The notes under the pieces: generated by a model
Database searches by the model: none
What the model saw: only the letters and a program-made list of their open reading frames with translations
Told to the model about the DNA's origin: nothing
Position numbers and translations under genes: made by a program
Part shown: positions 19,636 to 21,665 of the stretch, in pieces
Numbering within the stretch: the stretch's first letter is position 1
Layout: each line of letters starts with the position of its first letter
Origin: a virus
Lineage: Duplodnaviria > Heunggongvirae > Uroviricota > Caudoviricetes
IMG/VR virus record: IMGVR_UViG_2850773344_000006
Strand: one strand, 5' to 3'
Length of the DNA: 35,652 bases

Positions 19636-21240
19636 CTAGGTCTCCTTATAAACATCAGCCATCACATTGACCAGCCTATCAACCTCGACCTCTTTAGCAT
19701 AACGGTCGTAAGTAATAGACCCTGAACTATGCCCCATGATCGCCTGTGCATACGCCAACTCGACCCCATGTTGTTTTAACTGGGTCGCAACTGTATGTCT
19801 AAACGAGTGAAACGCTAAGCCGCTACGGTCTACGAGGACTTTAGGCAACAACGTCCGATTAAACCATTTACTCACCTGCTCACCGTAACCGTTCTTCATG
19901 AGACGCAGACCATCGAACACCATAGCGTCATCACCGTCAGCGCCTCTACGGGTCTCTACAAGCGCCATAAAGTCAGCCAATATAAAACCATAGGCCCCAT
20001 CGACCAGAGGCACACAGCGGTCACTATGAGCGTTCTTGATGCTCTTACCGGGTAGACTACTATCGTCTTCATTGATATGAATATAAACGGTTCCCGCCTC
20101 AGTGGTCCTGACGTCTTTGACCTGTAGTTGGGCTATTTCATTGAGTCTCGCCCCAGTGATAGCAGCCAAGGCGGTAACATAATAATGATACGGCTTACCA
20201 GAGGTCTTCTGAGAGTATGCCTTAGCTGCGACCAGTAGTTGCCCCACCTGCTCCGTAGAGAAGGCGTTACGGGCCCCTGAGGCTTTACGCTGAGGGACTT
20301 TAAGCTCCAGACCCTCAGTCATGTTCTTTTTAATCAAGTCATTGCGCACAACCCACCTAAAGACAGCAGCCATCTTAATAAGATACTTGTTGTTGATGGT
20401 AACGACATCCAGACAATCTGTCTTATCTTCACGGCTCAACAGGTCAGCAAGTGGGACATCCTTGAAGCGCTGCTTACGGTTCCTAGGTAACTGCTGGAGC
20501 ACATCACGGACCCTAAGCATGTCAGCCCTGTTAGCGTCTGCATTGAGACCCAGATGGTCGAATATTTCGATTAACGCAGCGTGTGACGCCTTGTTTTCCC
20601 TTAAGGTTGCAGGCTTCCAGTTCTGATAGTTCTCCGCTTCGTATTGCTCAAAGAGGCTCGCTATGGTAATGCTAGGCGTAACTTCTGGTTTTACTTCTGG
20701 AGCATTAACAGATAGGGACACAGAGTCTGCTTGGTTATCTTGCCTATCAATATCATTAAAAAGATCGACGTAATCTATCAGAGGCTGACTGTCTCCCGCT
20801 TCGATACGCCTCATACAGGCTTTTAGCACCTTCAGGGCCTCATTGATGTAACGATGCTGGTCAATGCTTAGCGGCTCACTAGCCAGAGCATCGGTAAGGC
20901 TCTCACCAAGTTCTCCGTATTGGTCCCGGTAGATATCCCTCATGTCAGGCTCAAAGAGATCTGAACGGCCCATAGACAGTTCACACTCAGCGATGTCCTT
21001 AAGGTGTTCCCTCATTTCCTCATAGGTAGCGTTGGGTCTGTCTGCGTGTATTGCCTTGAGTGCTGCCTTTATGTGCCTTGAGTAAGCCATAGCGGTGCGT
21101 CTATCCTTGGTCCGTAATGATATTGAGGTCATTCTATCATTGTTTGATTGTCTGACCCTAAGACGGAAGTAGTAGACGCCGTTACGCTGGTAGAGATAGT
21201 AGACTGCTGGAAGTTTGTGACTACTGGATAGCTGAATCAT
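19636..21240 (-). CDS. int: Tyrosine recombinase / integrase (534 aa)
   Basis: C-terminal catalytic region with ...GARLNEIAQL..., HSFRHTVATQL and ...GHSSGSITYDRYAKE (R, HxxR, Y signature); long N-terminal domain. Confidence 0.8.
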   Translation of the reverse strand: MIQLSSSHKLPAVYYLYQRNGVYYFRLRVRQSNNDRMTSISLRTKDRRTAMAYSRHIKAALKAIHADRPNATYEEMREHLKDIAECELSMGRSDLFEPDMRDIYRDQYGELGESLTDALASEPLSIDQHRYINEALKVLKACMRRIEAGDSQPLIDYVDLFNDIDRQDNQADSVSLSVNAPEVKPEVTPSITIASLFEQYEAENYQNWKPATLRENKASHAALIEIFDHLGLNADANRADMLRVRDVLQQLPRNRKQRFKDVPLADLLSREDKTDCLDVVTINNKYLIKMAAVFRWVVRNDLIKKNMTEGLELKVPQRKASGARNAFSTEQVGQLLVAAKAYSQKTSGKPYHYYVTALAAITGARLNEIAQLQVKDVRTTEAGTVYIHINEDDSSLPGKSIKNAHSDRCVPLVDGAYGFILADFMALVETRRGADGDDAMVFDGLRLMKNGYGEQVSKWFNRTLLPKVLVDRSGLAFHSFRHTVATQLKQHGVELAYAQAIMGHSSGSITYDRYAKEVEVDRLVNVMADVYKET

Positions 21241-21354
21241 ATGTCTGTATGCCCTGAGAGGGTTACACAGTGGGTTACAGTAAGTAACTCTGCAAGGAGG
21301 CTTAAAGCCGTATCCCTTAGGATTCAGTAGGTTGGAGTACTTTAAGAAAGGTCA

Positions 21355-21429
21355 TGGAGCGGGCAGCGGGAATCGAACCCGCATCATCAGCTTGGAAGGC
21401 TGAGGTAATAGCCATTATACGATGCCCGC
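21355..21429 (-). tRNA. tRNA-Gly (anticodon UCC)
   Basis: Reverse complement GCGGGCATCGTATAATGGCTATTACCTCAGCCTTCCAAGCTGATGATGCGGGTTCGATTCCCGCTGCCCGCTCCA folds as a canonical cloverleaf with encoded CCA. Confidence 0.8.
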
Positions 21430-21432
21430 ATA

Positions 21433-21508
21433 TGGTGCCGACTACCGGAATCGAACTGGTGACCTACTGATTACAAGTCAGTTGCTCTGCCTGCTGAGCT
21501 AAGTCGGC
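21433..21508 (-). tRNA. tRNA-Thr (anticodon UGU)
   Basis: Reverse complement GCCGACTTAGCTCAGCAGGCAGAGCAACTGACTTGTAATCAGTAGGTCACCAGTTCGATTCCGGTAGTCGGCACCA; 7-bp acceptor stem; one A-C mismatch in the T-stem. Confidence 0.7.
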
Positions 21509-21510
21509 GC

Positions 21511-21587
21511 TGGCCCACCACCGAGGACTCGAACCTCGCACCGTCAACTTAGAAGGTTGATGCTCTATCCGGATGAGCTAGTGGTGG
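21511..21587 (-). tRNA. tRNA-Arg (anticodon UCU), with an atypical C1:G72 acceptor pair
   Basis: Reverse complement CCACCACTAGCTCATCCGGATAGAGCATCAACCTTCTAAGTTGACGGTGCGAGGTTCGAGTCCTCGGTGGTGGGCCA; all four stems pair. Confidence 0.65.
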
Positions 21588-21588
21588 T

Positions 21589-21665
21589 TGGTGGCCCTTG
21601 CTGGACTTGAACCAGCGACCTGGCGATTATGAGTCGCTCGCTCTGACCAACTGAGCTAAAGGGCC
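21589..21665 (-). tRNA. tRNA with CAU anticodon, probably Ile2 (lysidine type) rather than elongator Met
   Basis: Reverse complement GGCCCTTTAGCTCAGTTGGTCAGAGCGAGCGACTCATAATCGCCAGGTCGCTGGTTCAAGTCCAGCAAGGGCCACCA; resembles the remembered E. coli ileX more than metT. Confidence 0.65.

Follow-up and report, generated by a model that had tools for sequence, protein, structure and literature searches.

A probable remnant of a small integrative island with an exact T7 promoter consensus at a prophage-borne tRNA-Gly gene of Shigella flexneri

Gene organization at the prophage tRNA cluster

The stretch of DNA analysed here (IMG/VR record IMGVR_UViG_2850773344_000006; 35,652 nt, hereafter the window) is from Shigella flexneri, with locus L011 from CP037923.1 being 100% identical to it over window positions 9636-31240, and contains a decayed lambdoid prophage in which a tyrosine integrase gene stands beside a cluster of four tRNA genes. 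The segment in question, 18653-21354 (2.7 kb), consists of the integrase gene, a T7 promoter, an AT-rich segment and a stub of a Rha-family gene. It is very probably the remnant of a small integrative island with possibly T7-responsive relatives, which integrated itself into the prophage tRNA-Gly(TCC) and was later truncated by insertion sequences (ISs). The coordinates of these features and of their surroundings are listed in Table 1.

Table 1. Positions of the island remnant, the tRNA cluster and neighbouring features in the window (ORF, open reading frame; att, attachment site)
Feature	Position	Strand	Evidence or remark
ipaH-type E3 ligase effector gene (LRR + NEL domains)	2941-4596	+	
Truncated tyrosine-recombinase ORF, 217 aa, catalytic domain only, beside sitABCD	9402-10055	+	
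sitABCD iron/manganese transporter, same decayed prophage region	10506-13955	+	
IS600 following IS1	~16934-17797		
IS1 cutting the island	17885-18652	-	Terminal repeat GGTAATGCTGCCAACTTACTGATTTAGTG from 18652; Pfam DDE_Tnp_IS1; left end estimated from the canonical 768-bp IS1 length
Rha-family stub, ~51 codons, then cut by IS1	18653-18808	-	Pfam Phage_pRha
NC2, conserved non-coding module just upstream of the first distal gene	18806-18930	-	
10-12-nt repeat arrays: inverted copies (18969-19005), AGGGCCATAG (19051-19082), CCTAGAGGAGAC type (19102-19190)	18969-19190		
AT-rich segment with TTAAAG-type repeats, T7-origin-like	19215-19345	-	blastn, alignment, motif positions in K11/T7
NC1, conserved non-coding module downstream of the promoter	19372-19493	-	
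Exact T7 class III promoter consensus TAATACGACTCACTATAGGGAGA, 23/23	19526-19548	-	0 expected in shuffles
Full-length tyrosine integrase, 534 aa	19636-21240	-	ORF, Pfam
Island-end spacer, 114 nt, tRNA 3′ end to integrase start codon	21241-21354	-	Alignments
attL core, last 23 nt of tRNA-Gly, TTCGATTCCCGCTGCCCGCTCCA	21355-21377	-	Sole copy in the window
tRNA-Gly(TCC), prophage-borne, island target, intact, phage/glyT type over its whole length	21355-21429	-	ARAGORN, Rfam
tRNA-Thr(tgt), cluster context, not island	21433-21508	-	ARAGORN, Rfam
tRNA-Arg(tct), cluster context, not island	21511-21587	-	ARAGORN, Rfam
tRNA-Met(cat), cluster context, not island	21589-21665	-	ARAGORN, Rfam
ORF6N antirepressor gene and the IS600 copy splitting it	22427-23583 and 21874-22521	-	

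As the original prediction had stated, the integrase is encoded next to tRNA-Gly on the same strand. A gap of 114 nt separates the tRNA 3′ end from the integrase start codon. Compared with its orthologues (516-587 aa), the protein is full length, and its catalytic domain is intact, matching Phage_integrase (PF00589) at residues 329-516 with an E value of 4e-18; its N-terminus gives a below-threshold Pfam match to DUF6538. The identical protein is found in the same arrangement in several S. flexneri chromosomes. A blastn search of 5426 complete E. coli genomes revealed a match to the integrase gene in 381 of them, 380 at 80-95% nucleotide identity. Every match is on a chromosome, and the median number of places in a genome is one. 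The nearest integrases of phages (30-32% identity, 97% coverage) are those of Pseudomonas phages of ~40-42 kb; the best match is in vB_PsyP_3MF5, a member of the Studiervirinae, which is the T7 subfamily, and its gene there has the terminase gene on one side and the right terminal repeat on the other. Regarding the target, the tRNA-Gly(TCC) of the window is identical to the copies of phages phi467 and vB_EcoS-689R5 and, at 75 of 75 positions, to glyT of E. coli K-12, and was probably captured from the thrU-tyrU-glyT-thrT region of the host. An Rfam scan of the region returned nothing besides the tRNAs.

The junction at tRNA-Gly

Three lambdoid relatives carrying the same tRNA cluster, namely the phages vB_EcoS-689R5 and phi467 and a prophage of the enteroinvasive E. 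coli (EIEC) CFSAN029787, are 93.6-98.7% identical to the window through the tRNA genes, and this identity ends at the last base of tRNA-Gly (...GCCCGCTCCA), position 21355. In all three, tRNA-Gly is followed by ~290 bp and then by the holin-lysozyme-Rz-terminase genes, with no integrase at that place; the comparison with lambdoid prophages that had been proposed in the original prediction thus gives a holin where the window has the integrase. Past 21355, exactly where the phage identity stops, the window becomes 94% identical to the DNA after the chromosomal glyU, which encodes tRNA-Gly(CCC), in E. coli 21AR0133 (L001), and 85% identical to the glyU-adjacent DNA of NCTC10973 (L005). In the 114-nt spacer between tRNA and integrase, the window is near-identical to the glyU islands and shows no relationship to the usual phage sequence after tRNA-Gly. 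The unoccupied form of the chromosomal site is seen in K-12, where the ygeQ side comes directly after glyU. The 23-nt core at the end of the phage tRNA agrees with the glyU core of the family, TTCGATTCCCTTCGCCCGCTCCA, at 20 of 23 positions, the three differing positions being adjacent.

At glyU of both 21AR0133 and NCTC10973, the gene order is integrase, T7 promoter(s), repeats and a Rha-family gene. Because this same order recurs at glyU, the integrase, promoter region and rha stub of the window are one element that is foreign to the prophage. The suggestion that they form a separate element is therefore borne out by a discrete chromosomal island with the same order and 94% identity, and the two features on which that suggestion drew are real, the rha remnant giving a Phage_pRha match and the promoter being identical to the T7 consensus at every position.

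Intact islands and their distribution

The limits of the glyU islands were set by comparison with the empty K-12 site. The island of NCTC10973 is 4.2 kb long, and the tRNA 3′ end, TTCGATTCCCTTCGCCCGCTCCA, stands at both of its borders as a perfect direct repeat of 23 nt. In 21AR0133, two islands stand in tandem with 18-nt repeats of the tRNA 3′ end, and the one compared with the window extends over 7.3 kb up to its att repeat. A family scan of Enterobacterales, with one genome per species, yielded 20 loci with orthologous integrases (65-87% amino acid identity) in genera that include Klebsiella, Pectobacterium, Citrobacter, Buttiauxella, Enterobacter, Proteus, Morganella, Serratia, Rouxiella, Kluyvera, Shimwellia, Lonsdalea and Edaphovirga. 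At 14 of the 20 loci, the integrase gene is preceded on its own strand by a tRNA-Gly(CCC) gene at a distance of 110-270 nt (120-140 nt in 12 of these). At 13 of the 20, the 23-nt core recurs 4.4-7.6 kb downstream, with 0-4 mismatches. All 16 delimited relatives measure 4.2-7.6 kb. glyU, the tRNA-Gly(CCC) gene, is the canonical site of the family. The order of integrase, promoters facing the distal genes, non-coding modules and a Rha/KilA-N-type gene is common to the window and to L001, L005, L018 and L022. A second family member, with an integrase of 73% amino acid identity, a length of 7.6 kb and a capsid-like gene, was observed in E. coli ECMA0423 (L030) and S. flexneri SFBU1023 (L031); it adjoins a degenerate tRNA copy, possibly inside a tandem glyU array.

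Insertion into the phage-borne tRNA

An intact counterpart of the proposed insertion is present in E. coli EPSSH018 (L006), whose lambdoid prophage shares the late genes of the window (DUF1367, DUF1364, DUF1133, ORF6N and the tRNA cluster) and contains a complete 6.4-kb island between tRNA-Gly(TCC) and the holin gene. In its attL, the phage tRNA extends as far as ...GGGTTCGATTCCC and is joined there to the island/glyU-type TTC-GCCCGCTCCA. In its attR, the island arm ...CTTCGGCTCCC is joined to the phage-type GCT-GCCCGCTCCA, after which comes GTTAGAGTCTTTCAGTCTGCG / GTTAGAGTCTTTCAG, the exact sequence after tRNA-Gly in phi467. These reciprocal hybrids are the signature of an integrase-mediated exchange, with the crossover at or near TCCC. 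The tRNA-derived repeat sought in relatives of the window is thus found at an intact insertion into the same phage tRNA, which, together with the break in identity at the tRNA 3′ end, supports the original proposal that a phage tRNA had been used as the attachment site. The EPSSH018 island belongs to another subtype, its integrase gene having ~74% nucleotide identity to that of the window; as the subtypes differ, two independent insertions into the phage tRNA are indicated. EPSSH018 is the only one of the 5426 complete E. coli genomes in which the island spacer is joined to the phage tRNA-Gly-Thr pair.

The phage tRNA thus acted as a secondary site, being an exact copy of glyT that agrees with the family core at 20 of 23 positions. 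Chromosomal glyT is separated by 6 nt from thrT, which is followed by tufB, and insertion there would presumably split the glyT-thrT-tufB operon; a phage-borne copy of the glyT type would be a harmless secondary site.

Truncation of the island by IS1

The ORF at 18626-18808 (60 codons) matches Phage_pRha at residues 23-53 and enters the inverted repeat of IS1 at 18652. Beyond the corresponding point, the island of 21AR0133 continues with the remainder of its Rha gene (234 aa in full) and with genes for a 67-aa protein, a DUF6971 protein and a 373-aa protein, and closes with the distal repeat. In the window, the place of these distal genes and of the phage lysis and head genes is taken by IS1 and IS600, after which tail-fibre genes follow. 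The window has attL as its only att core copy, the distal part having been lost to IS1, and the small gene, the DUF6971 gene and the gene for a predicted HK97-fold capsid-like protein (see below) are deleted. The earlier expectation that the other junction had disappeared through IS activity fits these data. One candidate for a second att, from a search with a 17-nt core and two mismatches allowed, was rejected, as this single match lies on the wrong side and is at chance level.

Since attR and the distal part are gone, the remnant is unable to excise, and it is fixed in S. flexneri and immobile. In GCA_003572245.1 (QWSQ01000111.1; L012), the block of tRNA cluster, stub and IS1 is 99.8% identical to that of the window and lies on a different lambdoid backbone, whose DnaB-NinH-Q part is 98.3% identical to an EIEC prophage. 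The occurrence of the same block on two backbones implies that prophage recombination shifts the module between them. Three IMG/VR contigs matching NC1 repeat the arrangement of the window, two with the tRNA cluster and junction and one with the rha stub, IS1 and IS600.

Promoters, repeats and conserved non-coding modules

The T7 promoter at 19526-19548 is directed away from the integrase, toward the repeats and rha. It is part of a 121-nt unit that occurs once in the window and in L005, twice in L001 (promoters at 21095-21117 and 21214-21236) and three times in other Shigella-lineage copies (for example, the three-copy region of L049 at 552-920). The 17 islands compared contain 38 phage-type promoter motifs, 35 of which are on the strand facing the distal genes, and the motifs correspond to phages of the respective host. 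E. coli and Shigella islands of the window subtype (the window, L001, L005, L049 and L050) have the exact T7 consensus, and the island of Klebsiella pneumoniae ATCC 13883 (L018) has, within 12263-12843, the exact 23-mer of K11 phi9/phi10/phi13 and the exact T7 23-mer, in addition to two further close copies of the K11 type. Islands of Proteus and Kluyvera have AATTAACCCACACTATAGGGAGA in common. The promoter/origin-like region of the window type was found in 91 of the 5426 E. coli chromosomes. Contamination by a vector was considered as a source of the T7 promoters and was excluded, because the flanks are island sequence and the region recurs in varied form in these 91 chromosomes and in other genera.

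Downstream of the promoter, NC1 is 80-99% identical among islands of E. coli, Klebsiella, Morganella, Rouxiella and Edaphovirga. The following AT-rich segment gives the sole blastn match to phages other than that of the promoter: 83-85% identity over ~50 nt to the gene 1/1.1 interval of Teseptimaviruses, a similarity that is short (E about 5e-4) and partly compositional. In T7, this interval is the position of the primary replication origin, formed by phi1.1A/B and an AT-rich region. Motifs of the TTAAAG type cluster just past phi1.05, phiOL and phiOR in K11 and T7. The two tandem promoters of an island may be likened to phi1.1A/phi1.1B, and the arrangement of tandem T7 promoters (one to three) ahead of an AT-rich stretch with TTAAAG-type motifs resembles the T7 primary origin. 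This region of the islands is a candidate origin. The 10-12-nt repeat arrays look like iterons, and one copy of the CCTAGAGGAGAC type overlaps the stop codon of the integrase gene (19624-19640). The idea that the 12-nt repeats mimic the genome ends of T7 or K11 was dropped, since the motif is missing from the K11 genome and from two T7 end segments. NC2, which precedes the first distal gene, is 80-91% identical in 12 islands from many genera and surpasses the integrase gene in this respect; the conservation of both modules across genera equals or exceeds that of the integrase gene. A hairpin of 24 pairs (-23.8 kcal/mol) is predicted in NC2 beside the ribosome-binding site, with little covariation (RNAalifold).

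Gene content of the family

The gene content was derived from an all-against-all comparison of ORFs from 17 islands. On a single strand, tRNA-Gly is followed by the integrase gene, in 9 of the 17 by the gene of a family designated F4, by 0.7-1 kb of non-coding DNA, and by a variable gene of the DNA-binding type (Rha, KilA-N-like or others); the distal part consists of a gene of 58-76 aa, a gene for a DUF6971 protein with a charged, coiled-coil-like C-terminus, a gene for a protein of 326-402 aa (F2) and the distal repeat. F4 (DUF4145, ~215 aa) overlaps the integrase stop codon and matches PD-T7-4 in PADLOC with an E value of 3e-97. It is present in L006, L018, L022 and L024-L028, truncated in L032, and absent from L001 and L005; downstream of the integrase of the window there is likewise no ORF for a zinc-finger and DUF4145 HEPN protein that would overlap the 3′ end of the integrase gene. 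RAZR is the newer name of PD-T7-4, an abortive-infection HEPN RNase triggered by the portal proteins of T7 and T3 (PMC13017515); in the original PD-T7-4 screen, its gene was reported often to overlap an integrase gene (Vassallo et al. 2022; PMC9519451).

By sequence, F2 has no match in Pfam, PHROGs, NCBIfam, PADLOC or the sequences of the PDB. An AlphaFold model built from 34 homologues reached a predicted local distance difference test score (pLDDT) of 68 and a predicted template modelling score (pTM) of 0.65; a Foldseek search with it gave 120 matches at E <= 1e-3, and the leading fold matches are all HK97-fold capsid proteins or encapsulins. F2 is accordingly predicted to be an HK97-fold capsid-like protein. 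The pair of DUF6971 and capsid-like genes is present in 12 of the 17 islands. Some islands (L005 at 18843-19316, L024 and L034) have other small genes in place of the pair, and its absence there means that not every member of the family carries the distal cargo. When representatives of 8 recurrent ORF families, taken from L001, L005, L006 and L025, were scanned against Pfam, PHROGs and NCBIfam, neither a replication initiator or primase nor TerS, cos or pac was matched. The delimited relatives have no ORF large enough for a phage RNA polymerase, the integrase gene being their largest ORF.

Prophage context

The wider window, with its ipaH, sitABCD and tail-fibre genes and many IS copies, is the decayed lambdoid prophage itself. 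The late-region context that the original prediction had described, with a Q-like gene and an antirepressor, is recognizable to the right of the tRNA genes as an ORF6N antirepressor gene split by IS600, a DUF1133 gene of the Q-like type and a DUF1367 gene. A further IS600 and two IS1 copies are located within 10 kb of the split ORF6N gene. Such IS-dense surroundings fit an IS-driven erosion of prophage and island alike. The truncated recombinase ORF at 9402-10055 corresponds to a region that E. coli records call intR, and is probably what is left of the own integrase of this prophage region.

Proposed history, mechanism and alternative explanations

Taken together, the locus would have arisen in three steps. 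The island, by means of its own tyrosine integrase, would have inserted itself at the 3′ end of the prophage tRNA-Gly(TCC); this would have separated the Q/tRNA region of the prophage from its lysis genes; and a later deletion associated with IS1 and IS600 would have taken the rest of rha, the small gene, the DUF6971 gene, the capsid-like gene, attR and the lysis and head genes of the phage. The promoters of the intact relatives suggest how these might function. The RNA polymerase of an infecting T7-like phage would fire the host-matched promoters and thereby express the distal genes (Rha-type, small, DUF6971 and capsid-like); replication would be primed by transcripts that cross the AT-rich segment, so that the phage replisome would copy the island; and the capsid-like protein with its scaffold-like partner would either form small island particles, as in a satellite, or poison head assembly of the phage, as in defence. 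We infer that the islands are satellites of T7-like phages, abortive-infection or defence islands, or both. A tentative form of this reading, somewhat less likely than not, is that they are minimalist satellites of virulent T7-like phages, 4-8 kb long and located at tRNA-Gly, that stay silent until the phage polymerase arrives and that have a T7-type origin, their own HK97-fold protein and a DUF6971 scaffold for building or remodelling capsids and, often, the portal-sensing RNase RAZR.

Several points weigh against this account. As the window has no distal junction, a reciprocal exchange is not demonstrable for the Shigella lineage, and its junction has the phage-type GCT triplet, whereas that of EPSSH018 has the island-type TTC; the GCT triplet might be accounted for by an attP variant, by a crossover on its 3′ side or by a later conversion through another prophage tRNA copy. 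The activity of the integrase is a prediction from its sequence, and the T7-driven mechanism is likewise drawn from sequence signals. The structural model of F2 is of moderate confidence, and hhalign found no match between F2 and gp10A of T7. The search for a terminase, portal, primase or pac site in the islands was negative, and so was that for a free, virion-derived island contig: a 6.6-kb Logan contig is an integrated island copy, and the IMG/VR matches to F2 are situated where predicted prophages end.

With respect to the insertion, the GCT triplet would also suit a homologous or IS-mediated rearrangement that joined the end of a glyU island to the prophage with no site-specific integration; the region is full of IS1 and IS600, and in L012 the same module of tRNA and stub stands behind another lambdoid backbone. 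However, the junction falls exactly at the tRNA 3′ end and includes no glyU-specific base or glyU flank, the shared identity of 10-13 nt is too short for efficient RecA recombination, and the independent island of EPSSH018 shows reciprocal att hybrids at the same tRNA, so that such an origin is very improbable. Equally improbable is that the stub derives from a full-length (~40 kb) temperate T7-like prophage inserted at the phage tRNA. The stub does have a T7 promoter and an origin-like sequence, its original length is no longer readable with the distal part gone, and the nearest phage integrases come from integrase-bearing Studiervirinae, in which the gene lies beside the genome end; yet the 94% identical L001 has the same order of integrase, promoter and rha and reaches its att repeat after 7.3 kb, none of the 16 delimited relatives approaches ~40 kb, 12 of these 16 have the same DUF6971/capsid-like pair, and the single-subunit RNA polymerase and the T7 replication and virion genes that such a prophage would bring are missing. 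That the integrase is simply the lambdoid prophage's own, in a conserved position, might be supposed from its being encoded in the prophage remnant on the strand of the late genes. This is contradicted already, and its likelihood is negligible: related phages have the holin at that position, the E. coli homologues detected are all chromosomal and those at the loci examined lie at glyU outside prophages, and the prophage region has its separate truncated integrase at 9402-10055. Insertion of an island by its own integrase is the explanation we retain.

A different alternative concerns the mechanism and leaves the insertion untouched, namely that the islands serve defence only, the promoters acting as a sensor of infection and turning on proteins that do harm or serve as decoys (Rha-like, DUF6971 and capsid-like), with no packaging or transfer. 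The missing packaging genes and virion-derived contigs mentioned above speak for it, as does the cargo of 9 of the 17 islands, RAZR/PD-T7-4 being a proven abortive-infection protein triggered by portal proteins (PMC13017515). On the other side, a T7-origin-like segment and strongly conserved non-coding modules would be superfluous for a sensor, the capsid-like gene and the coiled-coil DUF6971 gene are laid out like a scaffold-capsid pair, and the elements have clearly moved between genera and att sites. A purely defensive role is hence rather doubtful.

Relationship to known elements

The locus of PD-T7-4/RAZR in E. coli belongs to the same element family, as F4 overlaps the integrase 3′ end in the islands that carry it; the window copy, L001 and L005 differ in having no RAZR gene. 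Text searches of the two PD-T7-4/RAZR reports (PMC9519451 and PMC13017515) turned up no reference to the island or its tRNA-Gly site, to phage promoters, to an origin-like segment or to a capsid-like gene. Like other islands with tRNA-targeting tyrosine integrases, those of this family have tRNA-derived direct repeats and an integrase gene that shares the strand of the tRNA and is directed away from the tRNA 3′ end; the target in the window differs in being a tRNA carried by a prophage, which makes the remnant an element within an element. The integrase-bearing Studiervirinae (vB_PsyP_3MF5 and Warsawvirus) have the closest phage integrases, encoded beside a non-coding genome end, and T7-type promoters, but they are whole phages of ~41 kb with RNA polymerase, replication and virion genes, which the islands do not have.

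In comparison with the described satellites, including phage-inducible chromosomal islands (PICIs), capsid-forming PICIs (cfPICIs), P4, PICI-like elements (PLEs) and phage-inducible chromosomal minimalist islands (PICMIs), the present islands are much smaller (4.2-7.6 kb) and no gene for a primase/rep, TerS, portal or protease was found in them. Their predicted helpers would be virulent T7-like phages, and their predicted trigger would be the phage RNA polymerase acting on host-matched promoters. We know of no such trigger in the described satellites. T7 is the textbook example of a strictly virulent phage, and we are not aware of any described satellite of a T7-like phage. The searchable literature, outside which most subscription-journal papers lie, gave no description of glyU islands with phage-polymerase promoters and yielded the PD-T7-4/RAZR papers alone; the island family is apparently previously undescribed. 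The recognition of glyU as the canonical site, of the phage tRNA as a glyT copy and of a wide family with predicted capsid-like genes goes beyond the original prediction.

Implications

The insertion of an island into the prophage tRNA explains the orphan integrase that is fixed in S. flexneri. For the annotation of prophages, it follows that their tRNA genes can capture other mobile elements. The islands would also supply the missing genomic context of RAZR/PD-T7-4. If the proposed mechanism is true, the family would represent mobile elements that read the private transcription machinery of a phage as their induction signal, and would provide a directly testable system.

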